A stretch of DNA of 64,000 bases, from assembly GCA_965178125.1 (NCBI GenBank), contig OZ237735.1, forward strand, positions 2,356,001 through 2,420,000, given 5' to 3'. The translations under genes and the position numbers were made by a program. Below, one piece after another: positions 7,039 to 47,020 of the stretch (its first letter is position 1; the number at the start of each line of letters is the position of its first letter). The notes below the pieces were generated by a model. That model did not search any database and was not told the DNA's origin. It saw only the letters and a program-made list of their open reading frames with translations. The DNA is from Bilabrum cf. latius. Lineage: Eukaryota.

Positions 7039-8448
7039 TTACTGGTGCTTGCGCTCGCCATGATGCACAGTGGACAGATGCCTCCTGAGTGAGCCTGCCC
7101 GCCCGAATGACTTGCCACAAACTCCGCACTCGTGCTTGCGCTCGCCATGATGCACAGTGGACAGGTGCCTCCTGAGTGAGCCTGCCTCCCCGAATGACTT
7201 GCCGCACACCATGCACTCGTGCTTGCGCTCGCCCAGATGCACAGTGGACAGATGCCTTCTGAGATGGCCTGCCACACCGAATGACTTGCCGCACACCATG
7301 CACTCGTGCTTGCGCTCGCCATGATGCCCAGTGGACATGTGCGTCCTGAGTGAGCCTGCCCGCCCGAATGACTTGCCGCACACCATGCACTCGTGCTTGC
7401 GCTCGCCCAGGTGCACAGTGGACAGATGCCTCCTGAGATCCCCTGCCTGCCCGAATGACTTGCCGCACACCATGCACTCGTGCTTGCGCTCGCCCAGATG
7501 CACAGTGGACAGGTGCGTCCTGAGATCCCCTGCCTGCCCGAATGACTTGCCGCACACCATGCACTCGTGCTTGCGCTCGCCCAGATGCACAGTGGACAGA
7601 TGCCTTCTGAGATGGCCTGCCACACCGAATGACTTGCCGCACACCATGCACTCGTGCTTGCGCTCGCCATGATGCCCAGTGGACATGTGCGTCCTGAGTG
7701 AGCCTGCCCGCCCGAATGACTTGCCGCACACACTGCACTCGTGCTTGCGCTCGCCCAGGTGCACAGTGGACATGTGCCTCCTGAGTGAGCCTGCCTCCCC
7801 GAATGACTTGCCGCACACCATGCACTCGTGCTTGCGCTCGCCCAGATGCACAGTGGACAGATGCCTTCTGAGATGGCCTGCCACACCGAATGACTTGCCG
7901 CACACCATGCACTCGTGCTTGCGCTCGCCATGATGCACAGTGGACACGTGCGTCCTGAGTGAGCCCGCATGCCCGAATGACTTGCCGCACACCATGCACC
8001 GATGTTCTGCCCCGATTCTGCCTGCCTGTCCCCGCCGTCTCTTCGCCCTCGATCCGCTCTGGCTGTCTGCTGACCTCGCCTCTGCCGGCCTGCCTCGCTT
8101 CTGGCCCAGAGAGGCATCCGTGCCGCCGCCTGCATCTACCCCTGAGCTTGACTGCATTGATGATTCTACTTCTTGCGGCAACATTGCGCTGCTGCTGGAG
8201 TGTCCCGACGCCACGATGCACGTGGGAACAGCTTCGGCTCGATCGCTGGCTGGATCTCGGGCCCTACCTTTCCCATCTGCGTTTCGCCTGCCCCACTAGC
8301 GACTGCTGGTCAATGATAGCGATGCAGCAATCGAGTTCATGTGACGGGCGGGAACCTCGACATCGCATCCACCAGCGTCGCTGTCGCTTGAGTCGCTGCT
8401 GACGAGATCGATCACCTCCCCTGAGCATGCACCTGCTGCTTGCTCCAT
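7039..8448 (-). CDS. Tandem C2H2 zinc-finger protein ZF1 (11 fingers, N-terminal SIM-like motif and NLS)
   Basis: ATG 8448 (MEQAAGACSGEVIDLVSSDSSDSD) reads through TAG 8296-8298 into ORF 7039..8214. 29-aa repeats HECxVCGKSFGxAGxLRxHxSTVHxGERK. Ends with TAA. Confidence 0.9.
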
Positions 8449-8821
8449 GGCTGCCTGGCAGTATCTATATCCAATACTGGATGCTGATGCGTAACCAGCC
8501 AGGTGGCTGCCGACCACAGAATGACAGGGAATACGAGCTTTCCTATTCACGACCTTTTCTGGTGTACCTGTTCGACGGCCAGTTCTGCTTTGCTCCAACG
8601 CAATCCTGAATCTAGAAAGGCTATACTTGGGGGATGCCACAGCCGAAACAGTAGCGAGGAAAATGACAAGGAGACGGTGAGATCGATCCTTGTTGGTCCG
8701 GTTCCGGCTGTTTTCATCTTCACAACTTCAAGGTGCTGGGCCTGGCGTGGCGGCCACGCTCACTTGGAACACCAGCTTCACAGGAAGCAAACAGGCCACG
8801 CGCAACCCACCACATCCCTCC

Positions 8822-16492: not shown

Positions 16493-18347
16493 ATGGAACG
16501 CGATGAATTCAACAACTCGGGAGAGGTGATCGATCTCGTCAGCAGCGACTCAAGCGAGAGCGACAGCGATGTCGAGGCTCCCGACAAGCACAACAACACA
16601 AGGTTTGCTGCATCAAATTCAGCGACTACCAGCGTCTAGTGGGGCTCTCCAGACGCATGTCTGAATGGCAGGGCCCGCGGTCCAGCTAGCGATCGAGAAG
16701 AAGCTGCCAGTGGGGCCGTCGATCAGACTCAAGCTAGTCCTGTGTCCACCGTGCCATCAGTACAATCCAGCAGCAGCACAGTATCACAGCAGGTGGTACA
16801 ATCGGCAATGCAGTTAAGCTTAGGAGCAGCTGCAGGTGATACTAGCCATTCCTCGCTGGGGCAGAAGCGGGGAAGGCGGGCAGAGGTTCGCCATCTAGAT
16901 AATTTCAAGAGGGGAGCGAGGGCAGGGAAGAAGCGGCGGAAGGAGGCACATACAAACGCGATAGAATTCGAATGCGAGGTATGCGGTAAGGTGCTGGGCT
17001 CAATGAAAGGCTTGCGGCAGCATGTGTCGGTGGTGCACCTGGGCGAGCGCAAGCACGAGTGCAGTGTGTGCGGCAAGTCATTCGGTGTGGCAGGCAATCT
17101 CAGGACGCACATGTCCACTGTGCATCTGGGGTAGCGCAAGCACGAGTGCAGTGTGTGCGGCAAGTCATTCGGGTAGGCAGGCTCGCTCAGGAAGCATATT
17201 TCCACTGTGCATCTGGGGTAGCGCAAGCACGAGTGCAGTGTGTGCGGCAAGTCATTCGGGCAGGCAGGTGATCTCAGGAGACACATGTCCACAGTGCATC
17301 TGGGCGAGCGCAAGCACGAGTGCAGTGTGTGCGGCAAGTCATTCGGGGAGGCAGGTGATCTCAGGAGACACTGTTATATGGACTCGGACATCAGGATTGA
17401 AGCAACGGGGAGCAGAGGTGAGACGGAAGACGAGGCGGGCGCAGGAGGACAGGAGGTGGAGAAGAAGAGGGGGACACCGGCACAGGCGACGACAGTGCGG
17501 TGTCAACAGGGAGAACACAACGGGAGGTAGGGGGCTCCAGGTGCAAGGCACGAGGGAGACACGGGTGGCAGCGGACTGCATGGCCAGCAGCACGCAGAAG
17601 GCCAACAGGTGGGTGGACAGATGGGGCGCACGGCAGGTCGGCCAGGACCGGCGCGTGCAAGCTGAAAGGATAGGGCCAAGGTGGCAATGCTGGGAGCAAA
17701 GCACACGGTCCCTAGGGCGGGGAACAGGAACAGGAAGCCATGTGGCGACGAGGCCAGTCGGGTGCATGGGGAAAGTGGTGTGTACATTCGTAGTGTCAGA
17801 TGAATACCGCATTCAGGTGGACCGGTGAAGAACCAGTCGTTCGGGGTGAAGCCCAGTGGGTCCGCGGGACCGGGGGCAGGAATTTTTCTTTTTGGTAACT
17901 GCCAACCAGTGGGGTTTGCAGCAGCCGCGAAGATGAGCCAATGGGTGTGGTTGAAGGAACAAATCTGATCTGTAGTCTAGGTTCAATGTCCACTGTGCAT
18001 CTGGGGTAGCGCAAGCACGAGTGCAGTGTGTGCGGCAAGTCATTCGGGCAGGCTCACTCAGGAGACACATGTCCACTGTGCATCTGGGGTAGCGCAAGCA
18101 CGAGTGCAGTGTGTGCGGCAAGTCATTCGGGCAGGCAGGCCATCTCAGGACGCACATGTCCACAGTGCATCTGGGGTAGCGCAAGCACGAGTGCAGTGTG
18201 TGCGGCAAGTCATTCGGTGTGGCAGGGAATCTCAGGACGCACATGTCCACTGTGCATCTGGGGTAGCGCAAGCACGAGTGCAGTGTGTGCGGCAAGTCAT
18301 TCGGGGAGGCAGGCTCACTCAGGACCCACATGAAACGATGCAATTGA
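16493..18347 (+). pseudogene. Tandem C2H2 zinc-finger gene ZF2 (~9 fingers), interrupted by a 614-bp insertion and a 4-bp frameshift
   Basis: ATG 16493 MERDEFNNSGEVIDLVSSDSSESD. Finger 5 is split at agacac|atgtcc by 17372-17985. GGGCAGGCTCACTC near 18046 lacks 4 nt relative to other fingers. The last finger ends THMKRCN-TGA. Confidence 0.75.
17372..17985 (+). mobile_element. Zinc-finger-associated repeat, copy E2, inserted inside ZF2
   Basis: Starts TGTTATATGGACTCGGACATCAGGATT and ends CTAGGTTCA. Removing it restores the finger sequence exactly. No target-site duplication. Collinear with 44765-45373. Confidence 0.85.
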
Positions 18348-26120: not shown

Positions 26121-26756
26121 ATAAATACACTGTCGTCGCCTGTGCCGGTGTCCACCTCTTCTTCTCTATCTCCTGACCTCCTGCGTCCACCGCGCCTTCC
26201 GGCTCGCCTCTGCTCCCTGTTGCTTCAATCCTGATGTCCGAGTACATATAACAGAAGCGACGGGGAGCAGATGTGAGCCGAAAGATGAGGGGGGCGCAGG
26301 AGGACAGGGGGTGAAGAGGAACAAGAGGGGGATACCGGCACAGGCGGCAACAGTGCGGTGTCAACAGGGAGAACACAACGGGAGGAATGGGGGCTCCAGG
26401 TGCAAGGTCCGAGGGAGACGCGGGTGGCAGCGGGCTGCGTGGCCAGCAGCGCGCAGAGGGCCAACAGGTGGGTGGACAGATGGGGCGCACGGCAGGTCGG
26501 CCAGGACCGGCGCGTGCAAGCTGAAAGGATAGGGCCAAGGTGGCAGTGTATGGAGCAAAGCACACGGTCCCTAGGGCGGGGAACAGGAACAGGAAGCCAT
26601 GTGGCAATGAGGCCAGTCGCGCGCATTGGGAAAGTCGCGTGCACATTCGTAGTGTCAGATGAAAACCGCATTCAGGTGTGCTGGTGAAGAACCAGTCGTT
26701 CGGGGTGACGCCCAGTGGGTCCGCGGGACCGGGGGCAGGAATTTTTCTTTTTTCAA
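26048..26756. mobile_element. Inverted pair of the zinc-finger-associated repeat (internally deleted arm 26048-26226, 27-bp spacer 26227-26253, long arm 26254-26756)
   Basis: Both arms are homologous to E1/E2/E4 in opposite orientations. The pair abuts the ZF3 TAA at 26757. Confidence 0.8.
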
Positions 26757-28457
26757 TTACTGGTGCTTGCGCTCGTCCAGATGCACTGTGGACAAGTGCC
26801 TCCTGAGTGAGCCTGACTCCCCGAATGACTTGCCGCACACACTGCACTCGTGCTTGCGCTACCCCAGATGCACAGTGGACATGTGCCTCCTGAGTGAGCC
26901 TGCCACACCGAATGACTTGCCGCACACACTGCACTCGTGCTTGCGCTCGCCCAGATGCACAGTGGACATGTGCGTCCTGAGATGGCCTGCCTCCCCGAAT
27001 GACTTGCCGCACACACTGCACTCGTGCTTGCGCTCGCCCAGATGCACAGTGGACATGTGCGTCCTGAGTGAGCCTGCCTCACCGAATGACTTGCCGCACA
27101 CACCGCACTCGTGCTTGCGCTCGCCCAGATGCACAGTGGACACGTGCTTCCTGAGATGGCCTGCCCGCCCAAATGACTTGCCGCAAACCATGCACTCGTG
27201 CTTGCGCTCGCCCAGGTGCACAGTGGACATGTGCGTCCTGAAAGTGCCTGCCAACCCGAATGACTTACCGCACACCATGCACTCGTGCTTGCGCTCGCCC
27301 AGGTGCACAGTGGACAGGTGCCTCCTGAGATCGCCAGCCTCCCCGAATGACTTGCTGCACACACTGCACTCGTGCTTGCGCTCGCCCAGGTGCACAGTGG
27401 ACAGGTGCCTCCTGAGATCGCCTGCCACACCGAATGACTTGCCGCACACACTGCACTCGTGCTTGCGCTACCCCAGATGCACAGTGGACATGTGCCTCCT
27501 GAGATCCCCTGCCCGCCCGAATGACTTGCCGCACACACTGCACTCGTGCTTGCGCTCGTCCAGATGCACAGTGGACATGTGCGTCCTGCGTGAGTCTGCC
27601 CGCCCGAATGACTTGCCGCACACACTGCACTCGTGCTTGCGCTCGCCCAGGTGCACAGTGGACATGTGCCTCCTGAGTGAGCCTGCCAAACCGAATGACT
27701 TGCCGCACACACCGCACTCGTGCTTGCGCTCGCCATGATGCACAGTGGACATGTGCCTCCTGAGCGAGCCTGCCACACCGAATGACTTGCCGCACACACT
27801 GCACTCGTGCTTGCGCTCGCCATGATGCACAGTGGACAGGTGCGTCCTGAGTGAGCCTGCCCGCCCGAATGACTTGCCGCATTCCATGCACTCGTGCTTG
27901 CGCTCGCCCAGGTGCACAGTGGACATGTGCCTCCTCAAGCTGGCCATGGTGCCCAGCACTTTCCCGCATACCTCGCACTCATACCCGTCAGCTGACACAT
28001 CTCCAGCTGCTTCCCTCCGCCGCCTCTTCGCCCTATCATCCTAGACGACGTCCAATACCTCCACATTCAAAACTGCCTGCCTGCCGCGTTTCTGCCCCAG
28101 AGAGGCGCTGCTGCTGTCGCCTGCAGTTGCACCTGAGCTCGCCTTCATCGATGATTGCACCGCCTGCTGCGATACTGCGCTGCTGCTGGATGATCCTGAC
28201 GCCACATACGACACGGGACTACTAGACTGAGGCTGGACGATGGCCCAAACTAGATCGCGACTTGGATCCCGTGCCCTGCCTTTCGAATACACACCACGGT
28301 GTCCATGCCTGCCATTGCGAGTCCTTTCTCTTGTTCCTCCACTTGTCCCTATGCATCTGTCGGGGGCTTCGATATCACTTTCGCACGCATCGCTCTCGCT
28401 GGAGTCGCTGTGGACGAGATCGATCACCTCCTCGGAGCTTGGACCGGCTTGCGCCAT
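26757..28457 (-). CDS. Tandem C2H2 zinc-finger protein ZF3 (14 fingers)
   Basis: ATG 28457 MAQAGPSSEEVIDLVHSDSSESD. One frame through TAGs at 28041, 27468 and 26859. Ends ERKHQ-TAA. Confidence 0.9.
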
Positions 28458-29628
28458 GGTGCTATTGGGCAGTCGATGCTCCTCCACGTGTGTAACTTGT
28501 AGATATATATCGGGCCGACTGGCTGGCGGCTGCAGAACGAAAACCAGCGACTGACAAACAGAACGATCTGGAAGCGACCTAGCACCCTGCAGTAGACTGC
28601 TCTACTTCGATTTCGCCCGACCTGGTCTCAGAGCTCTTCTCGAACAGGTCAAACGCCAACGCCAAGATGGAGACTTCAAAGACGGAATGAGTCGAAATCG
28701 AGAGATCTTGTCATCCACTCCGAGTCGCCGCGCCGCGACAGCGGAACCTACAACTTGGGCCCGCGTCCCGTGCACTTTCTGTCGCGCAGGGACGGCCAAA
28801 TTCTACACAGCATGCAGAATTAGTCGGCAAAAGCAAGTGTGAGAGACGCACCAAATCGTGCGCAGGAGTTCCAAATTAGTGCTCGGGGCAGACCAAAAAT
28901 CGGAACCAGCTAACAACGCGTGTGGCGAGTGATCTTCATGTGTGCCACGAAGTTCAAAATGACTGCAAATGAACATAGTGCGCAGAACCATTGCCCGGTG
29001 AGGTCGCCGATGCTCACCAGTAGCAGTCGCATGCACGAAGTCAGCTGCTATTGCCGATGCTGCAGCTCTCAATGTGATTGGATGCGTCAGCCACGGGTGG
29101 GCCTATGAGACCGCAAGCTGTCATAATGGGCAAGCCACTCGGGTAGGCAGGCAGGCAGCTTGAGGAGTCAGTGATGGCACACGTGCTCCGTGCAGCCGCA
29201 CGAGCGTATGCCCTACTGACTGCTCCATACTTCGGTCGCTCGCCCCACTGCACCCTGGCAGCTCCTGCATCCCTGCTCTGGATTGGGACGACTTCTAGCT
29301 TGCAAACCGAAGCCATATCATCGCCCATAGTCTACAAGTACATTCAATTTGAGATAGTTGGACTGCTTTTAATGTGAACGGCAGATATCGGCTTCTCCCC
29401 CACCCTCCAAAGCTCAGCGACCAACTCGTGCGACCAATACGTGCACAGCCACTGGCATGCATTGCAGTTGCACGAAGATGCAAGTGGAGATGCCGGTGCG
29501 GGACCACTATAGTTCTAGAAGCAGGATAAGCAAAGGCCTGCTTGAAGGAGGAACAGGACCCTAGCATTTCGCATTTAGTCGTTTTCTCGACATCTCGCAT
29601 CAGCAAGTTTTGTGTTTCTGGCAAGGAA

Positions 29629-32600: not shown

Positions 32601-35600
32601 GTGCTTCCATCCAGCAATGGCGTGTGAACGGTGGCTACCTGAGTCTGCACCGCGGCGATTCGTGCTCGACTCTGCAGCGGGCCGACAACTACCTCGTGAC
32701 GATGGATCAGGGCTGGGAATCCAAGAGCTTGCCGTTGGACGTCTCTGCTGATGTTTACGGGGATACTGGATCTGCCGGATTCGTAATCCGCACGCAGTTT
32801 GACACGAACGATCCGTACAACAAGGCCATGGCTGACCACTACTTGGTGGTGATCGACTGGTCCGACAGGCGCATCCGTGTGCAGAGGAGGGCAGCAGGAG
32901 AGCTGCGTGGCCCCATCTGCAACACGCAGCTGGCCAGCTCTGTGATCAAGGCGGACACCTGGCTGAATTTACGCGTGCGGGCGGAGGGCAACCGATTCCA
33001 GGTGTATCTTGATGGAACCAGACGGTGTGACGTGCAAGATGCCTCTGCTGACGCGCTGCCGTCTGGTGGTGCTGGTTTGTACATGGACACTCCTGGAGCG
33101 CCCGCCCGATTCCGTGACCTTCAGATCAAGCAAATTGATGCTATCTGCGAAGATGGGTGTGATGAGATGGCCGCTGGTGAGATGTGCACGTTTGCCTGCA
33201 GAGCACCCTTCGTGGCGCGCGGAGACTCGACTCGCACCTGCTAGTCAAACGGCGGTTGGGACGGAACGGCGTTCAGCTGTGGGTACAAGCTGCCAACTGT
33301 GTCCAATTAGGCCCGTGAAATCCTTGAAGAGAGTCCGGAGAATACTGCAGTCGGAGATCCGCTGGTTGCAGCGGCCCCTGATGGCCTCACAGTGGAGTTT
33401 GAGATTGCATCTGGCAACACGGGTGACGCATTCAGTGTGTCGAGCTGCACCGGCCAGCTTCGTGTGGCAACACCAAGTGCAATTGATTATGAGAGTGGGA
33501 CACGCTCCTTCACTCTGACCATGCGAGCGATGACCGAGGGGGACACCAGCGCGGCCGCCACATTAACGGTGACTGTGAGTGTACTCGACAGGAACGAGCC
33601 ACCAGAGTTTGCGGCATAGTCGCGGTCCATCGACGAAAACGCCGCTCCTGGCACCAATGTTGGAGCTGCCCTAACTGCCACGGACCCTGAGGGCGACGAC
33701 ATCGTGTGGTCTATCGAGCTGGGCAACGCCAACAACGCCTTCCAGATCTCGCCTAGCGGGCAGCTGACCTCCGGAATCACAACACCGAGTCCGCTTGATT
33801 TCGAGCAGACCCCCACGTGGCGCATCGTGGTGCGAGCTGCAAACACGGAGGAGCGGGATGGCTCCGACGTTGTGGTAGCGTACACGGAGGCCACCATCAC
33901 CGTGACCCTGAACGACGTGAATGAGCCTCCCATCGCCAACAACATGACCGTGGACATCTTGGAGACCTTTGGGCGGGAGGGACAATCCAGTACAGATCGA
34001 TACGTGGGCAGTTTGTCCATCGGTGATTAGGACATGGGACAGACTGTAACCGTTTCTGCAGGGCTAGGGTACCAATCCAGCCAATTCAACGTGTTCGCTA
34101 ACGGATCTGTGCGTTTAAAGCCTGGTGTGGCGTTGGACTACGAGACCAGGCCCGTAGTTCTGGTGCCCTTCATCGCGTCGGACGACCACAGCCCCTCTGC
34201 GTCAGCTCAAGGCTTTGTGATAATACAACTAGAGGACGTGAACGAGAGCCCTGTGGTGTCCTGGCCGGGCGAGTCAGGCGTGCCTGCTTTGAGCGTGCCT
34301 GAGGACGCCGGTGCCGGTGACGAGGTGGGCCGGATCGTGGCCACAGATCCCGATCGTGGACAGCAGGCTCGCTTCCGCATCGACTCGCAGAGCCCAGCAG
34401 GCAAGCTTCTCATCAACACCGAGACGGGTGTGATCGCTCTTGCTGGTACTCCTTCAGGTTCCACCGGCCCACTACTTGACACAGAGACGCAGCCCACATT
34501 GGGTGTTAATATCACAGTGTACGACACCGAGTTTTAGGTGCGTCGGGAATTGACCATCACCGTGGCGAACATTGACGAGCCTCCGGTATTCACAACAGCC
34601 AAGCAAGGCGCCTTGGCTGTCTACGAAAACTCTGTGTCGGCCTCTGCCGCTGCTCGCACCTCAGTAGGCACTATACGCGCAACAGACCCCGAGTCTGGGA
34701 CTGGCTCAGGTGTATCGTACAGCATCGTGTCACAGGATGTCACCAGGGCCGGCCACACGGCTCCCTTCGTGCTGGACTCCACCACCGGGCTGCTGCAGGT
34801 GAACGACGCGGAGCAGAGCGGCAAGAAGCCCGACCTGGATCACGAGTTTTAGGGCGGGTACATGGCCATCAACATCAGTGCCTCGGATGGCAGCGCTCCG
34901 GCCGGTGCCACCGTAATGGAGTTTCTGGTGACCATCCGCAACGTGAACGAGGCCCCGTCTCTGGATGCCTCCAGTGGCAACTTCTTTGCAGCAGCTTCAC
35001 GAGCCGGCACGATTGGACGCCCCCTCGCGACATTCGTCGCGGACGAGGACCTGCAGAGCAGCACGTTCACGGAGCGGTTCAACTTCTCCATTACGGCAGG
35101 AGACAGCGACGGTATCTTCAGCGTGCAGCAAGGCACTGGCCAGCTGTTCGTGACTGCCATCAACGCGGGCAAGCCTGGGTTTGCCTTCTCATCCACAGGC
35201 GGCGTAGGGTCCAACCAATTCAGTTTGAGTGTTCAAGTGACTGACAAGAAGGGCCTGAGTGGTACCGGCACTGTGCTGGTGCAACTGACTGAGACGAATA
35301 TTGCACCAAGCTTTAGCGCAGCAGCTTTTACCATTACGGTGGATGAGAACGCTGCGGATGCGACGCTTGTGGGCCGCATCGATGCTTCGGATGCCAATGA
35401 TGGGCAGACGGTCTCGTTCTCACTAGCACCCACTGGCGCATCTGCCAACGTTCCATTCCCGTTCGTGGTGTAGAGCGCCACCGGTGGTGATGTCAGCAGT
35501 GGTGCAGACGGCACAGCCATGATCAAGGTGGCGTCCGGTTCCGGTGGAGCCGGCTCCGGGCTGCTCGACTACGAAGGTGGCACAACACGGTTTGAGGCCG

Positions 35601-38600
35601 TGCTGACAGCCACTGACTCCCACAGCACTACTCCGCTTAGCAGCTCTACCACCATTGTGATCAATGTGAACGAGGTGGCTGAGGCGCCCTACTTCGACAC
35701 GGCCCGGCGGATCCCTTCTTCCGCGCGGTTCGACGTGACCATCGAGGAGGGCGCGGCGGAGGGCACAGCTGTCCGCCTGGCTGATGCCGCCGAGGAGGCC
35801 GCGCCGGGACAGGGCGCTTTGGCCGTGCTAATGGCGCGCGAAGACGATGTGGCCGACAACGGCACGGTGCGGTACACAATCCGAGCACCGACAGATGCGC
35901 TGCCTTCATCGTACAGCACGAGAGCGTGTGGAACTGCATTGACGATTTTGGGCGATGGAGCCGTCGGGGCTCTCGCTGTTGGCCAAGCAGGCGTGCTCGA
36001 CTTTGAGCTGAGCCCCAGCTTCCGGTGCACCATCGTGGCTACGGACGGGCGTGGTGCATCAGACACGGCCGACGTCTTCATCGCGCTGATCGACTCGAAC
36101 GACCACCCGTCTGTGCCTGCCGACCAGGTCCTGGCTGTGGCAGAGGACGCTGCGGCCAGCGCTGCTGTGGGCACTGTGTCCATCTCCGACCCCGACTCCC
36201 GGGCGGAATGGCGCAGCTTCGAGGTGCTGCTGGCCGGCGATCCTAGCCTGTCGGTGGCGCGAGACAATCGTTCTTCATCTGGGCTTGACGATGAGAATGA
36301 TGATGATGATGACGATGGAAGTTCAACTGTTTCTACGGGAGGGCCACAAAATGGAACTGGAAACAGTTCTGCTCCGGATCCTCATGTTGTGGAGGATGCC
36401 ACCGTATACGAGCTCTTCGAGATGGATCGATCGTCTGGCAGCCTGCGTCTGAGGGCGGGCCAGCAGCTGGACTGGGAGATGCGGGCCTCGTATGAGGTGC
36501 GTGTGATCGTGACGGATGGAGGTGGTCTCCGCACGGATGCATCTGTCACGGTGCGCGTGCAGGACGTGGACGATGCGTTCATCTCTGGGTTCAGGTACGT
36601 AGAAGACACGGACGCTGCCATCGGGCCTGATGGCACAGTGATGGGCGAAGGCATCGGTGGTGAGGACGGCGGCTTTATGCAGCCTGGTACGGGCGACAAC
36701 GCGACGGCTGGTGGAAGCAGTGTCGGAGCGGAAGGTGGCAGCGTGCAGTACGGCACGGTGGGCGGCGACTGGGTTGTGCTTCAGGGGTCTGGCTTCTCTC
36801 CAGTGCAGGCTCGCGTGGATGCCGAGAGCCTCGATCTGAGCATGTACCAGCTGACGGCTTCCTATGGGCCCGCCTCTGACCCCACTCGATACACTGCGTC
36901 TGAGTGTCGCATTGAGCAGGCCGGCTTTGAAGTGGCCTGCAGGGTGGTCGAGGGTGTGGGCGCTGGGCACGTGTGGATGCTTCGGCTGCTTGACTCGGCC
37001 AACTTGCGCGATCACTTGGCGTCGTCGGCCGAGTCCTCTGCCACCACGTCTTACTCGGCACCGTCGATCACGAGCGTGGCAGGCGTGGGTGGAATTGGCA
37101 ACATCCTGTCAACCCGTGGCGCGACTGACGACACAGTGTCCATCGTGGTGGAGGGCACAGATTTCGGGCCAGTGGGCACGATGGTGCAGCTGAACTACGG
37201 GCCGAGTCTGGCCGATAGAGCGTTTTCGGCTCGTGATTGCCGTGTGACGAATGCCCACGTGCAGATCACATGCCATCCCGTTGCTGGTGTGGGCGGGCCG
37301 CTGGACTTCGTGGCTACTGTGGGCGGCCAGATGTCCGTGGGCTTCGGCAGCTTGGTGTCGTACGAGACCCCGGCCGTCACGTCAATCATGGTAGGTGCGG
37401 ATGACTCGAGCTTCGTTGGTCTGGACTCACTGCCTACAGCTGGTGGGCCCATCATTTCTCTGATTGGGTCCGGCTTCGGGCCTGCGCTGACCCAGAGCCA
37501 CCCCATCGTGCTGGCAGGCCTCAACGTTAAGGCAACTTTTGGTGGCACTAATTCAACCCGATTCATGGCGGTGGGATGCAAGGTGGTGCGTGATCACGAC
37601 ATGGTAAACTGCACACTGCCAGAGGGTCTCGGTAGGATGCACTCGTGGATCGTGTACGCTGGCGGCCTGCAGTCGACTCCCACATCTGGCGCCCTGCGTA
37701 CGTCGTACGCTGTCCCTAGAGTGACAAGCGTGGGTGGCCCCGGGGCGGTAGCAGGCTCCACTCGCGGTGGACTGGAGCTGCTGGTGAGCGGCACTGACTT
37801 CGGGCCTACCGGCTGGTCCACCGAGGACTACGCAGATCTGGGTCCTCACGGTGACAGCAGCTGGATGGCGGGCGGCGTGTCCATCATGCCAAGCGTGACG
37901 TACGGCGGACCGAACTCGGCTCGGTTCATGGCTGCGTCTTGCCGTGTATCACTCGCGCATTCGCAGATCGCTTGCGTTACGTCGGTCGGCACTGGCGCGA
38001 ACCACACCGTCCGTGCCGCGGTAGGCGGTCAGATGTCTGAGTCCACCATGCCCGCTGCTTCTGAGACCAGTGAGGACGATGGCGGCCCTATGGGTGAAAT
38101 TGAGGTGACGACTGTCAGCTATGCTGCCCCTGTTGTTGCTTTGTACGACGGTGACGGCGCCGTGGATGCCAGTACACCAGGCGGGGATGTGGTTGTGATT
38201 AAGGGCGAGCACTTCGGGCCCGTGGGCAAGGCCTTCCTGGATGAGGTCAGGTACGGACTGGAGGAGCGAGACGTTGACTTGGAGGAGATGAACCGCAGGG
38301 GACTCGAGTTCGATGCCACTGCCAGCTGCAACGTGACCGTGGCGCACGAGGAGATCACGTGCGCCAAGCAGCCAGGTGCCGGTGCTGGCCTTAAGTGGCG
38401 CGTCATAGTGGATGGGCTAGAGTCGAGGCAGCCCACCACAGCGTATGCCGCACCGAGCGTGTCGGCTGTAATTGATCCTGCCACTGGTGACTCCAATGGT
38501 CCAGTGGTGACTGACGCATGGACGGATGGCGGGCAGGTGTTTGAGCTCACGGGCGAGAACTTCGGACCTCCCATGGCGCAGACCCCGTTCGGGCGCGTGT

Positions 38601-41600
38601 ACCTCGACTCGGTGCGGTATGGCGCATCGGGGCAAGAGTACGACGCCAGGAACTGCACGGTGCTGTCTCACGAGCGGATCCGATGTCGTACGGCGGCTGG
38701 TGTGGGCCGGGGTCATGTGTTCCGCGTCACTGTGCGCGGACAGTCCTCTGCCCTGAACCCCGCAGCCACCCTGTCTTACGCACCTCCTGTGCTGACAAAT
38801 GTGCAGCCCACGAACGGTCCCACGAAGGGCCTCGTTGCCGTGACTGTGGATGGGACCAACCTCGGTCTGCAGGACTCTCGCATCCGATCTGGCGATGCTG
38901 GCGATGAGTCGGGCAGCTCGTCTCAGTCTTCGCTGCGTCTGCTATTCGGGTTCCCCGACGGCACCACAGGGCATGTTGACTCGACCCGCGCTGTGGTGCT
39001 GCAGTCCGCTGGCACCACCACACCCCCCGCACACCGCGTCACGTTCCTGCTGCCCGAGGGAGAGGGCTCCGACCTGGGCGTGCAGGCACTGGTGGACCCG
39101 GGACAGGGCCCCTCGTCCTGGCTGCGGTCGAACGTGGTGGTATTCGATTACGACAGCCCTGCACTGACCCGGCTGCATGCCGAGCTGTTCGATCCCATCG
39201 ATCGCCCGACCGACTACCGCATCACAGCCACAGGCACCAACTTCGGTCCCAGCCCCGTGTTCGTGGTGGGCGAGGCCCCGCCTCAGGTGGGCTTCGATCC
39301 CCCCACGTGTCCAACCACTAGTCAGGGCGTGCTGCTGCTAGCCTGCTGGGAGGTGGCTGCGCATTCCGAGTGCAAGATCGTGTCGGGTCACGAGCAGGTG
39401 AACTGCATCGTGTCCAATGTGGAGCGGGGATGCGTGTGGGTGCAGGACGGCACGGGCCGCGAGACAGCGGGCGTGTTGTTCGAGTCAGTGTCACCGTCCA
39501 TCGCAGAGCGAGGCGATGGCGAGGTCAGGCCCGACTTGGCCACCCGTGGCGGCACTGTGATCACCATGCGGGGTACGGCTTGGTCCACGACCGCTGGCGT
39601 GATGTCTGTGGACGTGGACGGCAGCCCGTGCACGAACGTGTCTGTGCGGTGTGTTGATGCCGCCCCGTGTACCGCCGCCTCGACGTACGAGCTGACCTGC
39701 ACGGCACCCGCCGGACAGGGTGCAGGCATTGATGTGACGGTGCTCCGAGGTGGCGTGGCATCGCTTCCTGACTTCGACTGGAACTACGCTGCGCCATCGG
39801 TGTCGTCTGTGAGTCCCTCGCTGCTGCCCACCTCTGGTGGCCTGACCACGATCACTGGCATGAACTTTGGCGCTGTGCCTGGGGATGCCGGCGTGGTAGT
39901 GAATGGCGTGAATGTGGACGTAGTGTCTTGGGACCACGAGGAGGTGGTGCTAGATGTGAGGGAGGGACAGGGCTCCGCCCGCAACGCCTTTCTAGACAAC
40001 GGGCGGCTGTCGGATTCCTTCCAGATTGGATATATGGCACCTTTCGTGGCGTCAGCTGCCCTTGTTGGCGGCGGCGAGCTGGATGTGCCTTCTCGCGGCA
40101 TGGTCAATGTGACGCTGGCAGGATCTAACTTTGGCGTGCAGGCACCCGCCGTGCATCTCGTGTGGAACCCGTCTGTGCCTCGCGCGCTGCCAGCCCCGCT
40201 GGACGGTGATGGTAACCCGCTGCCTACTCCTGACGAGCCGGTAGTTCCCAAACCGATGGTGTGTGAGGCGGTCGACTGGACACATAGGAGCGTGACTTGC
40301 ACCGTGCCCGCTGGTCAGGGTGCTGGCTGGGGCTGGCGCGTGACAGCTGGTGGGCAGTCCAACGACGCTGCCGCGGTGGAGGCAGCCTTCTCGTACAACG
40401 CCCCCCGGGTGCTTGGCTTTTCCTCTCATCAGAACGACGGCATGTCGCTGACAGGTGGCTCTCGAGACCTGGCTGTTCCTCTGTACCCTACCGAGGGCGG
40501 TGTTGTAGTGAACCTGTCGTGTGCAGATTGCGGTACCGCAGGCGCTATGGTGCGCCTACTGCCGAACAATCAGGAAGGCCCGGCTGGCAGTCGTCGAGTA
40601 CAGGCAGAGTCGAGTCCGGCGTGGTTCGGTGCCGTTGTACCTGTACTCTCGTAGGGCCACGACCAGATCTCCTTCGTGCTGCCTGAGGGTCAGGGTGATG
40701 GGCTGATGATTGATGTGGTTGTCATGGGCCAGCGTAGTTCTGGTACCGTGGTATTCGAATACGACGCTCCGTACATTGCAGCAGTAGCTATGCCAGCCAA
40801 AGTACCAACTCGCGGCACATTCTCCGAGAGCATCGCACCTGCGGACAGGGCGATTATGAGCGTGCTGGGGCATTCGTTCGGTATCGCTGCTTTAGCCCGC
40901 ACCGAGGTGCGGCTGCTTCCTCCTCGCGACAACGGGGCCATGGAGGTGACGCCAGACGAGTTCTTTGCCTCTCCGCCGCTACAGGCCACCGACGAGATGG
41001 GTCGTCCTCGCGGCGTGCCCACCGCCCGCATCCCCCTGAGCCTTCGACCAGACGTCGCCGAGCCCAGTGGATATGCCCTCGACACCTCGGGGGCGCGCTT
41101 CCACTCGCATTCCGAGATCCCGGCTGGGGTGCCCCAGGGCTACGGCCGTGACCTGCGACTGGTGGTGGCAGTGGACGGACGCCTGTCAAACCCCGTGCCA
41201 CTGAGCTACGACGCCCCTGAGATCTTCTTCGCCAGTCCCAACCAGCCCAGCGCAGCCGGCGATATCGTGCGAATCTTCGGCAACAACCTCGGCGAGACCC
41301 CGCCACTGCCCGGTGACGGTTTCTTGGTGGGCATCGGGGGTCTTAATTGCACCAACGGCGGCGGCAGTTGGACGTTAGATTCATCGGTGATTCCACCCGA
41401 GCCATTCCTGGAGTGCGAGACCATGGAGGACCGCGCTGGCCGCAAGAACATCTCCGTGAAAGTGGCACTGCAAGAGATCACGTACAACGACGAGCTGTCT
41501 CTGCGGCTGTCTGCCGAGTGCGATAACGACTACTATGGTGACAACGGCGAGTGGTGCCTTGAGTGCCCCGTGGGTGCCGACTGCCCTGGTGGACCGGTGG

Positions 41601-43927
41601 ACCCCGTGTCGCTGGCTGGGTTCTTCGACATGCGGCCCAACATCTCTGCAGCTGACCCTAACAAGCGGGACGAGCTGGCGTGCCCGGAGGAGCGCCGGGG
41701 GAAGGAGTCTCAGGAGCTGCGATCCTACTGCTTCCACTTCTTGCCGTGCCAGCCACAGGACGCGTGTCTGGGCAACAACGAGTGCTCCGCCGCGTACACG
41801 GGTCCGCGGTGCGCCGAGTGCTCCGAGGGCCATTTCCGGTCTACGCTGGGCGTATGCGAGGAGTGCCCCGACAACCAGTGGGTGATCTTGATCCTGTTTG
41901 TGGTGGCCGTGCTGTTCATGGGCATCGGTGCGTACTTCGTGGCCAGGGCTGACATCCAGATCGCACCCCTAAGTCTGAGCCTGGACTATGCCCAGGTGCT
42001 TGCCATCCTAGCTCGATCCAAGGTGCCGTGGCCTCCGATCGTGCTGAACACCTTCCGCATCCTGTCGGCTTTCAACCTCAACATCGACATCGTGGCCCCT
42101 CAGTGCATCGTGCCCAACGTGGGCTACATCGCGCAATGGACTGCCATCATGCTGCTGCCCCTCGCGGCTCTGGCAATGTTCGGGCTGTGTCACGTGTCTC
42201 TGTACCTGTACAAGCTGCTAGTGCTGGGGCGCCCAAGAAGCAAGCGCTGCAACCATTACCCTATCCTGCTCATGATGGGCTCTGGCTCGCTGTACATCCT
42301 GTACCTGCAGCTCACACGCACCATTCTAGACGTGTGGAACTGCAGCCCCACCACCCCACCTGACGGCAAGCTGTACCTTCAGGTCGTGTTCGAGGAATGC
42401 GGCAAGCCGGGCGGCGTGTAGATGACGCTGCTTCCGTTTGCCATCATTGCTTTTGCAGTGTATACAGTAGCATACCCAGTGACGGTGGCCGTGCTGCTGT
42501 ATAGGAGCCGTGACCTGATCGTGGAGGACCAGCTGCTGAGGGCACGCGGTCTTGGCAAGGACAGGAGCACAAACCCGCACGCGTTTGACACGCGCAAGAG
42601 TCTGCACAAGCTGTACTACTTCTTCCGTCCTGTGGTGGCCCCGTACTGGATCCTGACCATCCTGGCCCGCAAGTTCGGCGTGGCTGTGGTGAGTCTGCTG
42701 TTCGTGAACAATGCTGCGTACCAGCTGGCTACCCTGCTGCTGGTGGTGTTCCTGAGCTACACGGCCCAGGTGTACGTGATGCCGTACATGTCTCGCGAGG
42801 ACATGGCCGATGCCATCCGCGACCATGAGCAGCGCTGCGAGAAGGGCGATCTGATGCACATTACGATCAAAACACGTCTGCAGCGCGTGTTCCAGGACCG
42901 TGCCAAGGCCTGGGACCGCCGCCGCTTCGGGTAGGGCATCAGCGGCAGTGCCAGCGACAACTCGCTGATGGCGTCTGTGACTGCGGCCGCCACCCAGTGC
43001 GCTGTGTCGTACAACACTCTGGAGAGCACATAGCTGGCGCTGACCGTGCTGATTGCGCTGTCTGGTGTCTGCTTCTAGTCGGGTCGCTTCGACGACGATC
43101 TGATCGGGGTGCAGTCGAGTCGCGCTATCGAGCGCGATGTGCTGACGGTGGTGACCATGATGCTGATCTTCGGCGGGCTGATCTTCTGCGCTGTGTCCAT
43201 CGGTCTGGAGGTGTACACGTCTCTCAACGAGCAGTGGCGCAAGGATGCGCTCAATAGCGCTGGTGCAAGAAGCAGTCGCGTTGGCAAGGGCAAGGCCGGC
43301 CCCATGTCCCAGCGCGCCATGAAGGAGCTCCAGCGGCTCAGAGACCTCGAGACCGGTGGCAGCTCCGCAGACAGTGGGAGCATTGCGGGAGGTTTGGAGG
43401 TGTCAAGTAGCGGCAGCGCAGCGTCCGCGTCTGGCGTGGGTGTGAACCCGATGTTCCTCGGCTCCGGGTCCTCCAAGGGGGCCGACACGGGTGCCAAGGC
43501 CGATGAGGCCCTCTTAGCCACTGACGTGCCGGACGCCGCGACTTGGCAGTTCGTGCGAAACCACATGCGTGAGCTCAAGGCGGAGGTGTAGCGCCTGCGA
43601 AAGAGCGAGAGGGTCGTAGAAATGGGCGGGGGGACCTCGGATTTTGTTGCGAGGGGCACCGTAGGGCGTCGCGTGCGGGGAGTTGGACGCCCAGGCTCCC
43701 TCGGACGTTCCAGGAACGCCTTCGGTCCAACTCAGGCGGACAGCAGTGAAGTACATCTTAAAGCCAGAAAGGCCAAAGAGTTAAATCGCCGAAAGGATGT
43801 GCGCAGCTTCTTGCGCAGTGATGGGACAAGCGGCTCTCAGCGAAGCCTGCTCTCTGGTGGAAAGTCCGATTTGACGCGAGTAGAGAACCCAGTGGCCGCG
43901 GATTTGGTCGGCTCTGACACCACGTGA
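29629..43927 (+). CDS. Giant cell-surface protein: signal peptide, lectin/LamG-like and sushi-like modules, cadherin repeats, IPT/TIG repeats, Cys-rich EGF-like region, multi-pass TM domain
   Basis: From ~31650 a single frame broken only by TAG runs to TGA 43925-43927. Cadherin motifs (LDYE, DxNEPP, ATDPE), IPT motifs (GxNFGP, YAAPSV), CAECSEGHFR, and several hydrophobic helices at 41880-43210. The 5' exons (introns starting near 29720, 29892, 30312, 30804, 31559) are approximate. Confidence 0.8.
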
Positions 43928-44186: not shown

Positions 44187-44764
44187 AGAAAAATTCCTGC
44201 CCCCGGTCCCGCGGACCCACTGGGCTTCACCCCGAACGACTGGTTCTTCACCGGTCCACCTGAATGCGGTATTCATCTGACACTACGAATGTACACACCA
44301 CTTTCCCCATGCACCCGACTGGCCTCGTCGCCACATGGCTTCCTGTTCCTGTTCCCCGCCCTAGGGACCGTGTGCTTTGCTCCATGCATTGCCACCTTGG
44401 CCCTATCCTCTTGCAGCGTGCACGCGCCGGTTCTGGCCGGCCCATGGTGCGCCCCGTCTGTCCACCCACCTGTTGGCCCTCTGCGTTCTGCGGGCCATGC
44501 AGCCCGCTGCCACTCGCGTCTCTCTCGTGCCTTGCACCTGGAGCCCCCTACCTCCCGTTGTGTTCTCCCTGTTGACACCGCACTGTCGTAGCCTGTGCCG
44601 GTGTCCCCTCTGTCCTTCTCCACCTCCTGTCCTCCTGTGCCGGTGTCCCCTCTGTTCTTCTCCACCTCCTGTCCTCCTGTGCCGGTGTCCCCTCTGTCCT
44701 TCTCCACCTCCTGTCCTCCTGCGCCCACCCCGTCTTCCGGCTCGCCTCTGCTCCCCGTCGCTTC
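44187..44764 (-). mobile_element. Zinc-finger-associated repeat, copy E4a (lacks the 27-bp head; internal 42-bp triplication)
   Basis: Reverse complement of 44792-45277, with three tandem 42-bp units at ~44593-44720. Confidence 0.8.
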
Positions 44765-45400
44765 TGTTATATGTACTCGGACATCAGGATTGAAGCAACG
44801 GGGAGCAGAGGTGAGACGGAAGACGAGGCGGGAGGGCAGGAGGTGGAGAAGAAGAGGGGGACACCGGCACAGGCGACGACAGTGCGGTGTCAACAGGGAG
44901 AACACAACGGGAGGAATGGGGGCTCCAGGTGCAAGGCACGAGGGAGACGCGGGTGGCAGCGGACTGCATGGCCAGCAGCACGCAGAAGGCCAACAGGTGG
45001 GTGGACAGATGGGGCGCACGGCAGGTCGGCCAGGACCGGCGCGTGCAAGCTGAAAGGATAGGGCCAAGGTGGCGATGCTGGGAGCAAAGCACACGGTCCC
45101 TAGGGCGGGGAACAGGAACAGGAAGCCATGTGGCGACGAGGCCAGTCGGGTGCATGGGGAAAGTGGTGTGTACATTCGTAGTGTCAGATGAATACCGCAT
45201 TCAGGTGGACCGGTGAAGAACCAGTCGTTCGGGGTGAAGCCCAGTGGGTCCGCGGGACCGGGGGCAAGAATTTTTCTTTTTGGTAACTGCCAACCAGTGG
45301 AGTTTGCAGCAGCCGTGAAGATGAGCCAATGGGTGTGGTTGAAGGAACAAATCTGATCTGTAGTCTAGGTTCAAATCCTGATGTACGAGGAAACATAACA
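44765..45400 (+). mobile_element. Longest repeat copy E4b, 636 bp, with imperfect 27-bp terminal inverted repeats (MITE- or solo-LTR-like)
   Basis: Left end TGTTATATGTACTCGGACATCAGGATT; reverse complement of the right end TGTTATGTTTCCTCGTACATCAGGATT. No TSD. Abuts the ZF4 TAA at 45401. Confidence 0.8.
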
Positions 45401-47020
45401 TTACTGGTGCTTGCGCTCGCCCAGATGCACAGTGGACATGTGCCTCCTGAGATGGCTTGCCACCCCGAATGACTTGCCGCATACCATGCACTCGTGCTTG
45501 CGCTCGCCCAGATGCACAGTGGACATGTGCCTCCTGAGATCCCCTGCCTGCCCGAATGACTTGCCGCACACCATGCACTCGTGCTTGCGCTCGCCCAGAT
45601 GCACAGTGGACATGTGCGTCCTGAGATCCCCTGCCTGCCCGAATGACTTGCCGCACACCATGCACTCGTGCTTGCGCTCGCCCAGATGCACAGTGGACAG
45701 GTGCTTCCTGAGTGAGCCTGCCTCCCCGAATAACTTGCCGCACACCATGCACTCGTGCTTGCGCTCGCCCAGATGCACAGTGGACAGGTGCGTCCTGAGT
45801 GAGCCTGCCTCCCCGAATGACTTGCCGCATACCATGCACTCGTGCTTGCGCTCGCCCAGATGCACAGTGGACATGTGCCTCCTGAGATTGCCTGCCAGCC
45901 CGAATGACTTGCCGCACACACTGCACTCGTGCTTGCGCTCGCCCAGATGCACAGTGGACAGGTGCGTCTTGAGAGTGCCTGCCTGCCCAAATGACTTGCC
46001 GCACACACTGCACTCGTGCTTGCGCTCGCCCAGATGCACAGTGGACATGTGCGTCCTGAGATTGCCTGCCAGCCCGAATGACTTGCCGCACACACTGCAC
46101 TCGTGCTTGCGCTCGCCCAGATGCACAGTGGACATGTGCGTCCTGAGATTCCCTGCCACACCGAATGACTTGCCGCACGCCATGCACTCGTGCTTGCGCT
46201 CGCCATGATGCACAGTGGACATGTGCGTCCTGAGTGAGCCTGCCTCCCCGAATGACTTGCCGCACACACTGCACTCGTGCTTGCGCTCGCCCAGATGCAC
46301 AGTGGACAGGTGCGTCTTGAGATTGCCTGCCTGCCCAAATGACTTGCCGCACACCATGCACTCGTGCTTGCGCTACCCCAGGTGCACAGTGGACATGTGC
46401 GTCCTGAGTGAGCCTGCCACACCGAATGACTTGCCGCACACACTGCACTCGTGCTTGCGCTCGCCCAGATGCACAGTGGACAGGTGCCTCCTCAAGCTGG
46501 CCATGCTGCTCAGTACTTTCCCGCAGTCCTCGCATTCATATCCGTCAGCTGACACACTTCCAGCTGCTTCCCCCCGCCGCCTCTTAGCCCTACCATCCTA
46601 GTAGACGTCCATTGCCTCCACATTCAAAACTGTCTGCCTGCCGCGCTTCTGCCCCAGAGAGGCACTGCTGCTGTCGCCTGCAGCTGCACCTGAGCTTGCT
46701 TTCATCGATGATTGCGCCATCGGCTATGATACTGTGCTGCTGCTGCTGCTGGATGATCCTGACGCCACAAAGGACACGGGACTACTAGACTGAGGCGGGA
46801 CGATGGCCCCAGCTGGATCGCGACTTGGATCCTGTGCCCTGCCTTTCGAATACACACCACGGTTGCCATGCCTGCCATTGTGAGTCCTTTCTCTTGTTCC
46901 TTCGCTTATCCCGATGCATCTGTCGGGGGCTTCGACATCACTTTCGCAAGCGTCGCTCTCGCTGGAGTCGCTGTGGACGAGATCGATCACCTCCTCGGAG
47001 CTTGGACCGGCTTGCGCCAT
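45401..47020 (-). CDS. Tandem C2H2 zinc-finger protein ZF4 (13 fingers)
   Basis: ATG 47020 MAQAGPSSEEVIDLVHSDSSESD. One frame through TAGs at 46724, ~46598 and 46373. Ends GERKHQ-TAA. Confidence 0.9.

Follow-up and report, generated by a model that had tools for sequence, protein, structure and literature searches.

What are nearly identical C2H2 zinc fingers that vary mainly at their DNA-contacting residues doing outside the families in which such arrays are known, and do they belong to one of those families? The question is raised by four loci, ZF1–ZF4, in a 64-kb stretch of DNA that was analysed as a whole and is called the window here. Large many-finger C2H2 families with diversifying contacts are regarded as an animal speciality; as summarised in Emerson & Thomas 2009 (PMC2604467), many-finger families evolve adaptively and it is only in metazoans that large ones, with many fingers in tandem, occur. 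If such a family had arisen separately in a microbial eukaryote that has been poorly sampled, the reprogrammable zinc-finger array would be a convergent solution. Our results suggest that ZF1–ZF4 are most likely an independently evolved, fast-diversifying DNA-binding family.

Gene loci and genetic code

Tandem Repeats Finder detected 87-bp arrays at 7041–7999 (11.0 copies), 17033–17371 (3.9), 17986–18332 (4.0), 26759–27935 (13.5) and 45403–46492 (12.5), bearing out at four loci the near-identical 87-bp unit described in the first-pass annotation of this DNA. When the window was searched in six frames under translation table 15 with the pattern C-x2-C-x12-H-x(3–5)-H, 44 complete C-x2-C-x12-H-x4-H fingers were found, all 44 inside the four 87-bp (29-aa) loci (11 in ZF1, 6 in ZF2, 14 in ZF3 and 13 in ZF4), and there was no complete C2H2 motif in the window outside them. 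Scans of the window for tRNA genes and Rfam families gave no match.

Three of the loci are intact genes on the minus strand once TAG is read as Gln. ZF1 (7039..8448; 469 aa) consists of an N-terminal part of 148 aa and 11 fingers (array 7048–8004) recognised by Pfam as zf-C2H2/zf-H2C2_2, and its coding sequence contains no TAG after the Met. ZF3 (26757..28457; 566 aa) has 158 N-terminal residues and 14 fingers (array 26766–27983), with three TAG (Gln) codons after the Met, and ZF4 (45401..47020; 539 aa) has 160 N-terminal residues and 13 fingers (array 45410–46540). All three end with TAA, and the genes are short and apparently intron-free. The span originally annotated runs from the ZF1 stop (7039) to the ZF4 start codon (47020).

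ZF2, on the plus strand, is a disrupted copy, finger 5 being interrupted by a 614-bp repeat element and finger 6 shortened by a 4-bp deletion. Its 5′ part (16493..17371) comprises the N-terminal region, a degenerate finger 1, fingers 2–4 and finger 5 up to its codon 19 (ending in DLRRH), and its 3′ part (17986..18339) comprises the remainder of finger 5 (MSTVHLGQRK), finger 6 frameshifted by the deletion, fingers 7–8 and a terminal finger that ends in H-x3-C and is followed by the stop TGA. Of the nine fingers, six are complete; the insertion splits one, the deletion shifts the frame of another, and the terminal one ends in H-x3-C. The earlier counts of 11, about 9, 14 and 13 fingers were thus reproduced, with 9 in ZF2, but ZF2 cannot be listed as an intact paralog.

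The use of code 15, proposed in the same annotation, was confirmed on an independent protein. In an eIF4A-III-like DEAD-box helicase, TAG codons occupy the Q-motif Gln and the motif Ia Gln, both of which are invariant Gln positions; these are the two TAGs within the aligned region (2/2), and three others lie outside it. With TAG read as sense, the longest ORF reached 4166 aa instead of 1726 aa. TAG is therefore a sense codon for Gln, and the table-15 reading is right; without it, two of the three intact ZF genes would pass for pseudogenes. The locus is a clean internal witness for a nuclear TAG=Gln code in which TAA still terminates. The closest relatives of the helicase core show at most 49% identity and, because of the TAG=Gln code and the lack of a helicase relative above this value, the host is unlikely to be a metazoan.

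Zinc-finger arrays and contact residues

The arrays are canonical C2H2 fingers with a seven-residue linker and an F/L core. On ZF1, Pfam zf-C2H2 (PF00096) scored 185.3 bits (cut-off 25.2; 11 stretches; E 2.7e-56) and zf-H2C2_2 (PF13465) 237.2 bits (cut-off 40; E 8e-73). No Cys or His ligand varies in any of the 41 core units, the histidines are spaced H-x4-H instead of H-x3-H, and the linker from the final His of one finger to the opening Cys of the next, H-[LH]-G-[EQ]-R-K-H-E-C, keeps the G-E-[RK] core. The closest solved structure was DNA-bound ZNF568 (5v3m_C, E 1.4e-57), which aligned finger by finger and on which the helix register was verified. It was followed by Aart, CTCF and PRDM9, all DNA-bound poly-zinc-finger proteins, the PRDM9 structures matching more weakly than ZNF568 (5v3g_D, 2.9e-25; 5egb_A, 2.8e-20).

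Diversity statistics were computed on the 41 core units at 29 positions each. The two highest entropies were those of helix positions −1 (2.36 bits) and +3 (2.04 bits), and +6 reached 1.30 bits. Together the three hold 47% of the total amino-acid entropy, a sum that is attained by 3 of the 3654 possible position triplets, and −1 and +3 also ranked first when ZF1, ZF3 and ZF4 were each analysed alone. The residues present (−1, V/E/Q/R/L/H; +3, S/D/H/N/T; +6, T/R/K) match those of the first-pass annotation, whose finger order for ZF1 (HST VHR ESR RST VHR QDT QDR RST VHR ESR RSR) was recovered exactly; there are 25 finger signatures among the 41 units. Its view that variation is focused at the contacts holds by these measures, but four non-contact sites are polymorphic as well, namely the first residue inside CxxC (M/S/G, 1.30 bits), helix +8 (M/L/V/I, 1.34), the position just behind the final His (L/H, 0.71) and a linker position with E or Q (TAG) (0.66). 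Helix position +1 is almost always Ala and +2 almost always Gly, and in many fingers +3 is Ser and +6 is Thr, residues that specify bases weakly.

At the nucleotide level, piN/piS was 2.0 at the contact codons versus 0.36 at the other 26 codons, pi-based ratios that carry no formal test and are only descriptive because the units are related and recombine; N-terminal dN/dS was 0.51–0.63, which together with the framework value speaks for selection on the genes. Among variants present in at least three units, the ratio of nonsynonymous to synonymous changes was 8:0 at contact codons versus 4:8 in the framework (Fisher p 0.0047), and with singletons included it was 11:4 versus 20:18 (p 0.22, not significant). 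The postulated nonsynonymous excess at −1, +3 and +6 is thus significant for common variants but not when singletons are counted.

To look for targets, the 64-kb window was scanned with recognition-code PWMs, using a crude, approximate code taken from general knowledge and a null of 30 first-order Markov sequences. No match for ZF1, ZF3 or ZF4 stood above the null, the top scores versus null maxima being 15.4 versus 13.8±3.0, 13.0 versus 13.9±3.2 and 16.1 versus 11.8±2.7, respectively. The silencing of transposons or viruses, or target selection, that had been suggested for the family is accordingly unsupported by this crude scan.

Exchange between arrays

Framework pS between arrays was 0.12–0.21, as against an N-terminal pS of 0.39–0.55 between the same genes, with the recent pair ZF3–ZF4 (0.13) as the exception. 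For the distant paralogs, framework divergence (pS 0.15–0.21) was approximately threefold below N-terminal divergence, and because it lies so far below, exchange must have occurred after the genes diverged. Units differ by approximately 10% both within and between arrays, 21.9 of the 41 units had their nearest unit within their own array (10.4 expected), and all four gametes were found at 132 of 231 informative site pairs. The fingers of ZF3 and ZF4 show no positional correspondence, though the flanks of these genes are 87% identical. The likeness of the frameworks and the four-gamete pairs fit concerted evolution with shuffling, in agreement with the homogenised frameworks, within and between paralogs, and the recombination-shuffled variants of the original description.

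These data bear most directly on the possibility that the proteins are ordinary lineage-specific transcription factors for host genes, their contact-site differences going back to old subfunctionalisation and their homogeneous frameworks to recent tandem finger duplication, with no ongoing arms race or reprogramming. We regard this explanation as unlikely, though it is the alternative that survives best. It agrees with the position of the loci among ordinary host genes (EF-hand, WD40, flavoprotein reductase, helicase and kinase genes in the window), with the 10% difference within and between arrays, in which no very recent burst is visible, and with the lack of a TE-like target in the window by the crude PWM scan. 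However, the low framework pS relative to the N-termini calls for exchange after divergence, the fingers of ZF3 and ZF4 do not correspond in position despite their similar flanks, and an insertion has cost the family one copy.

Flanking repeats

The insertion in ZF2 is repeat element E (17372..17985, plus strand; 614 bp), whose insertion point is precisely the junction of the helix +7 His codon with the Met codon after it, and which is 97.6% identical to 44764–45374. No target-site duplication was seen at this insertion. Copies of the flank repeat (F/E core) are located directly 3′ of ZF1 (6524..7022, forward relative to the gene) and directly 3′ of ZF3 (26255..26752, inverted relative to the ZF1 arrangement). 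Beside the ZF4 stop codon, E (44765..45400) is bounded by 27-nt inverted repeats (44765–44791 and 45374–45400, 85% complementary), and a distal copy 3′ of ZF4 (44187..44641) forms a 223+139+65-nt inverted repeat with 44857–45277, the arms of which are separated by three copies of a 42-bp tandem repeat (44592–44725). All five E/F copies in the window are beside or inside a ZF array, none is elsewhere, and E occurs in both orientations relative to the ZF genes. A segmental duplication (1..6599, 98% identical to 19516–26126) stops in both copies at the flank repeat, one copy next to ZF1 and the other next to ZF3. ZF3 and ZF4 share a paralogous unit of approximately 2.6 kb (26139–28749 versus 44676–47309), in which zinc fingers gave the only Pfam matches and no transposase, integrase or reverse-transcriptase ORF was found.

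The evidence from sequencing runs consists of Logan contigs, in which repeat arrays are fragmented; 190 of the 555 contigs of run X1 that were placed on this DNA fit two places. In the DNA runs, loose contig ends at the E boundaries 44764 and 45374 have three differing continuations each, and the summed contig depth on E, which is not the same as copy number, is the highest of the part on which contigs were placed (3600–4800 versus approximately 30–60).

One alternative makes the ZF gene the cargo, or a component, of a mobile or recombining unit that ends in the E/F repeat; the family would then be the population of copies of this unit, the protein perhaps serving the element, for example in target choice. 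The association of every E/F copy with an array, the inverted ends beside ZF4, the multiple contig continuations with the high summed depth, and the end of the segmental duplication at the repeat would all agree with such a unit, but the shared unit has none of the enzyme ORFs searched for, E lies in both orientations, the ZF2 insertion shows no target-site duplication, and summed depth does not measure copy number. We consider this explanation improbable. Under the preferred reading of an independently evolved DNA-binding family, ZF2 would represent family turnover, a copy inactivated by the same dispersed repeat that flanks all the others.

N-terminal region and comparison with known families

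The N-terminal part of approximately 150–160 residues is of low complexity and looks disordered. Pfam searches of the four N-termini with E values up to 10 returned nothing significant, and PR/SET, KRAB and SSXRD domains were absent from the whole of ZF1 and the four N-termini. The region contains two basic, NLS-like patches (SLGQKRGR and RAKRRR) and the motif S-x-EVIDLV-x-SDSS-x-SD, of which EVIDLV and the acidic Ser tail are invariant in all four N-termini. An HMM built from these four sequences and run against 1.84 billion representatives gave three matches, among which the one real family relative was P0129, a 59-aa ENA fragment with the family N-terminus (53% identity, E 8e-15) that retains the motif. 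The other two, P0128 and P0130, were rejected as repetitive, unrelated proteins.

By its likeness to one known example, EVIDLV is a putative SUMO-interaction motif (SIM). The core of the PIAS1 SIM is VIDLT, as given in PMC4907222 and PMC3901395. EVIDLV, with the SDSS(E/D)SD that follows it, matches this hydrophobic core and likewise has an acidic, phosphorylatable tail, whereas the ZF N-terminus has no SP-RING or other PIAS domain; the likeness is at the level of the motif.

Searches with the ZF4 protein recovered generic C2H2 proteins, mostly metazoan and aligned to the finger part alone, with identities of at most 53% among the best 120 of 7999 scored candidates of near length and at most 55% among the best 120 of shorter length. 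The exact framework DNA pattern had no match in metagenome contigs and none in viral contigs, and a search of metagenome contigs for related loci gave 45 pattern matches, none of which was confirmed. Among the papers listed by full-text literature searches, judged by title and the opening of the abstract, none described such a family outside animals, which is weak evidence of absence.

ZF1–ZF4 lie outside the PRDM9 and KRAB families. The term ‘PRDM9-like’ used in the first-pass annotation is apt for the array architecture, a C-terminal C2H2 array from a coding minisatellite with near-identical frameworks and hypervariable −1, +3 and +6, but not for the rest of the protein, as there is no KRAB-like, SSXRD or PR/SET domain. 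Furthermore, PRDM9 is a single gene with a unit of 84 bp (28 aa) and H-x3-H spacing, whereas this is a clustered multi-gene family with an 87-bp (29-aa), H-x4-H unit in a host with TAG=Gln. In PRDM9, unequal exchange drives array evolution, as summarised in, e.g., PMC3890296 and PMC8925151. That the present arrays designate meiotic hotspots, with target erosion driving their rapid change, is nevertheless very improbable: the minisatellite, the hypervariable contacts, the concerted evolution and the PRDM9 structures among the solved relatives would fit, but the similarity is generic to C2H2 fingers and below that to ZNF568, there are several paralogs and not one highly allelic gene, no N-terminus of the four has a significant Pfam match, and the methyltransferase is missing, which is why we disfavour it.

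KRAB zinc-finger proteins (KRAB-ZFPs) such as ZNF568 resemble ZF1–ZF4 in their clustered many-finger paralogs, seven-residue linker, diversified contact residues, frequent duplication and loss, and an N-terminal module presumed to recruit silencing machinery. They differ in that ZF1–ZF4 have no KRAB (PF01352), SCAN or BTB domain and carry a short SIM-like motif instead, and in that the fingers described here are far more alike. Insect ZAD-ZNF and fish FiNZ proteins are lineage-specific metazoan poly-zinc-finger families with folded N-terminal domains; they share with ZF1–ZF4 the independent expansion and a lineage-specific N-terminal module, but they are metazoan and their module is a folded domain, whereas the ZF1–ZF4 N-terminus has no detectable domain.

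Proposed function

We judge it probable that ZF1–ZF4 are a clustered family of sequence-specific DNA-binding proteins, independent of PRDM9 and the KRAB-ZFPs, that follows the same logic and combines finger reshuffling with SIM-led repression, a silencing role being something that we only infer. The 41 units draw on a small alphabet of 25 finger signatures, which unequal exchange and gene conversion would reshuffle, giving every gene its own long DNA word to read. At the sites so bound, SUMO or SUMOylated chromatin factors may be recruited by the N-terminal SIM. The KRAB domain binds KAP1/TRIM28, and KRAB-ZFPs repress repeats and mobile DNA through KAP1; the likeliest outcome of recruitment by ZF1–ZF4 would be a similar repression of repeats or mobile DNA. 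A more specific proposal, that the family is a non-animal, KZFP-like genome defence in which exchange of 87-bp cassettes within and between paralogs keeps reprogramming the DNA-reading residues and the SIM, in place of a KRAB domain, directs SUMO-dependent heterochromatin machinery to dispersed repeats, E among them, is tentative and on balance doubtful.

With its short genes, near-identical frameworks and small finger alphabet, the locus would provide a much simpler system for studying cassette shuffling. The family would also suggest that zinc-finger arrays can be coupled to chromatin in another way, by the reading of SUMO.

Sequencing runs and further members

In two DNA runs, the summed contig depth on the arrays was approximately 10–20 times the neighbouring baseline; as summed depth is not copy number, this gives only a hint of extra family members. 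Among the 40 of 181 window-versus-run differences listed, none was inside the arrays, which contigs cannot resolve.

No run among those listed is recorded as RNA. Contigs of run X5 covered both arrays and the ZF3 N-terminal bin 28035–28701 (summed depth 19.8), and left 28702–29368 and 38040–40040 uncovered. Its cover on the ZF genes does not amount to evidence of expression, because the run may also hold DNA and paralogs that are at least 95% alike would map there. In the same run, contigs were joined across five GT..AG introns at 29719–31644, and hence spliced sequence is present.

Four zinc-finger loci and the genetic code in which they are read

Five stretches of an 87-bp tandem repeat with 88-92% matches were detected by Tandem Repeats Finder, at 7041-7999 (11.0 copies), 17033-17371 (3.9 copies), 17986-18332 (4.0 copies), 26759-27935 (13.5 copies) and 45403-46492 (12.5 copies). 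In frame, the unit encodes a 29-residue C2H2 finger, HEC-x-VCGKSFG-x-AG-x-LR-x-H-x-STVH-x-G-[EQ]-RK, with the spacing C-x2-C-x12-H-x4-H and a 7-residue linker. A six-frame regular-expression search of the 64-kb window found 44 complete fingers, all of them inside four loci (ZF1, 11; ZF2, 6; ZF3, 14; ZF4, 13), and when the finger order of ZF1 was re-derived, it matched that of the first-pass annotation letter for letter. ZF1 scored 185 bits with Pfam zf-C2H2 and 237 bits with zf-H2C2_2. The nearest solved structures were DNA-bound poly-zinc-finger arrays, namely ZNF568 (5v3m_C, E 1.4e-57), Aart, CTCF and PRDM9.

Several arrays contain an in-frame TAG (e.g. LG-TAG-RKHEC, vs GAG in other units). 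Long neighbouring ORFs elsewhere in the window were interrupted by TAG alone, and the longest ORF grew from 1726 to 4166 aa once TAG was read as sense. In an eIF4A-III-like helicase (53362-55506, minus strand), two TAGs lie within the region aligned to 2hyi_C, at the glutamines of the Q-motif and motif Ia, and the other three fall in unaligned tails. Since ORFs are split by TAG alone and TAGs occupy two conserved helicase glutamines, TAG encodes Gln. In this nuclear code TAA and TGA remain stops; the translation table 15 used in the first-pass annotation was correct. With TAG as Gln, ZF1 (7039-8448, 469 aa), ZF3 (26757-28457, 566 aa) and ZF4 (45401-47020, 539 aa) count as intact genes, and TAA is the stop of all three. 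Their terminal finger has the usual H-x4-H, followed by KHQ-TAA. The 4166-aa ORF (31427-43927) contains 15 TAGs, and a kinase ORF of 1944 aa (47510-53344) contains 23.

Variation is concentrated at the base-contacting positions

Variation was analyzed in 41 core units, three degenerate first fingers (ECEVCGKVLG type; ZF2, ZF3 and ZF4) being excluded. The variable helix positions were -1, +3 and +6, in a register confirmed by the ZNF568 alignment. Entropy was highest at -1 (V/E/Q/R/L/H, 2.36 bits) and +3 (S/D/H/N/T, 2.04 bits), which also ranked first and second in ZF1, ZF3 and ZF4 each alone. Helix +8 (M/L/V/I, 1.34 bits), +6 (T/R/K, 1.30 bits), the first residue within CxxC (M/S/G, 1.30 bits), the residue following the last His (L/H, 0.71 bits) and a linker residue (E or TAG-encoded Q, 0.66 bits) came next. 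Entropy at the remaining positions was 0.33 bits at most, with no variation at all in the four zinc ligands. Positions -1, +3 and +6 held 47% of the total amino-acid entropy, and just 3 of all 3654 triplets of positions had a sum as high.

The pairwise nonsynonymous/synonymous diversity ratio was 2.0 at the contact codons vs 0.36 at the other 26, figures that describe the pattern well and are no formal selection test, since the units are related and recombining. Counts of variant states gave a weaker picture: N:S was 11:4 at contact codons vs 20:18 at other codons with singletons included (p 0.22), and 8:0 vs 4:8 for variants shared by three or more units (p 0.0047).

The 41 units had 39 different DNA sequences and 25 different (-1,+3,+6) signatures, and within the 87-bp unit all four gametes were present in 132 of 231 informative site pairs. 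Synonymous divergence of the N-termini was 0.13 in the recent pair ZF3-ZF4, compared with 0.39-0.55 between distant paralogs (dN/dS between paralogs, 0.51-0.63). Synonymous diversity of the finger framework between arrays was 0.12-0.21, about equal to that within arrays (0.10-0.18) and lower than the N-terminal divergence of the distant paralogs; the arrays therefore went on exchanging sequence after the genes had diverged. For 21.9 of 41 units (10.4 expected), the closest other unit belonged to their own array; thus exchange within arrays was commoner. QDT-QDR (ZF1 and ZF4) was the only multi-finger signature block common to different genes, and a variant with two linked bases, GGG-TAG in place of GGC-GAG, occurred in units of ZF2, ZF3 and ZF4.

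A dispersed repeat accompanies the arrays

ZF2 is a former 9-finger gene, now broken by two lesions. The first is a 614-bp repeat (17372-17985) placed exactly between the His(+7) codon of finger 5 and the next Met codon (...DLRRH/MSTVHLGQRK...), and the second is a 4-bp frameshifting deletion in the finger after the interrupted one. The last ZF2 finger (18280-18339) ends C-x2-C-x12-H-x3-C (THMKRCN, stop TGA).

The inserted repeat, called E (~610 bp, beginning TGTTATATG and ending GGTTCA), has five copies in the window (6524-7022, 17372-17985, 26255-26752, 44187-44641 and 44765-45400), each beside or inside a ZF array; relative to the gene, both orientations occur. The copy adjoining ZF4 is flanked by 27-nt inverted repeats; in the ZF3 copy, a ~25-nt terminal segment appears inverted in place. 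Contigs from two DNA runs showed three differing continuations at each of the E ends 44764 and 45374, and their summed depth was highest, within the covered stretch, at E. Pfam and Rfam gave E no identity. The five array-linked copies, the differing continuations and the top depth mark E as a dispersed repeat tied somehow to the ZF family, and it may be a target, vehicle or recombination substrate of the ZF genes.

The first 6.6 kb of the window (1-6599) recurs at 19516-26126 with 98% identity, a segmental duplication of which each copy stops at the E repeat, here ~490 bp, directly 3' of ZF1 or ZF3. Within the duplication lie a WH2/Pro-rich gene and a flavodoxin-FAD-NAD reductase gene. Despite the 98% identical duplication beside them, the N-termini of ZF1 and ZF3 are only ~51% identical.

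The N-terminus and the relationship to known families

The first-pass annotation had called the arrays PRDM9-like. The likeness holds for array architecture, which the genes share with PRDM9 and with KRAB-ZFP clusters. Tests for the domains that define these two families, however, found none. None of the four N-termini had a significant Pfam match, even at E up to 10. Their alignment showed short invariant motifs (S-x-EVIDLV-x-SDSS-x-SD, D-x-E-x-P, GRA, SSSS, SLGQKRGR and RAK-RR) amid Ser-rich, low-complexity sequence. The first of these fits the SUMO-interaction motif (SIM) of PIAS1 both in its core, given as VIDLT in PMC4907222 and PMC3901395, and in its acidic tail. Basic patches in the N-termini appear to resemble nuclear localisation signals. 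The genes are best described as an independent poly-zinc-finger family whose own N-terminus bears a putative SIM. The anatomy of the family is solid and its function we infer; the most economical guess is that the effector step would be SUMO-dependent repression.

According to Emerson & Thomas 2009 (PMC2604467), large gene families encoding many fingers in tandem occur in metazoans only, and the titles and abstract openings covered by a literature search held no counter-example. Close relatives of the arrays were not found among the listed matches of word-indexed protein searches, by a DNA-pattern scan of metagenome and viral contigs, or by a protein-guided scan of metagenome contigs. An exhaustive HMM search with the N-terminus recovered one true relative, a 59-aa ENA fragment beginning MAQAGTSSEEVIDLVHSDSS. 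The helicase core had no relative above 49% identity, suggesting that the host lineage is poorly sampled.

Other features of the window

At 29719-31644, upstream of the 4166-aa cadherin/TIG ORF, contigs of a further run (X5) lack five short introns of 86-147 bp with GT..AG ends, which indicates a host with canonical short introns and a start of the cadherin/TIG gene well upstream of 31427. Within this giant ORF, a contig of the DNA runs X1 and X3 (38726-39140) carries 13 differences in 415 bases at ~2x the neighbouring depth and may represent a divergent haplotype or a collapsed paralog. The helicase has a C-terminal tail with 11-residue repeats, encoded by a perfect tandem repeat of 33 bp (53579-53774; 5.9 copies, 100% matches). 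The window's proteins often contain low-complexity inserts, and long Ala-Pro runs are encoded by hexamer microsatellites, (GCACCT)n and (GCCCCA)n, in coding sequence at 475-677, 19990-20210 and 2993-3061.
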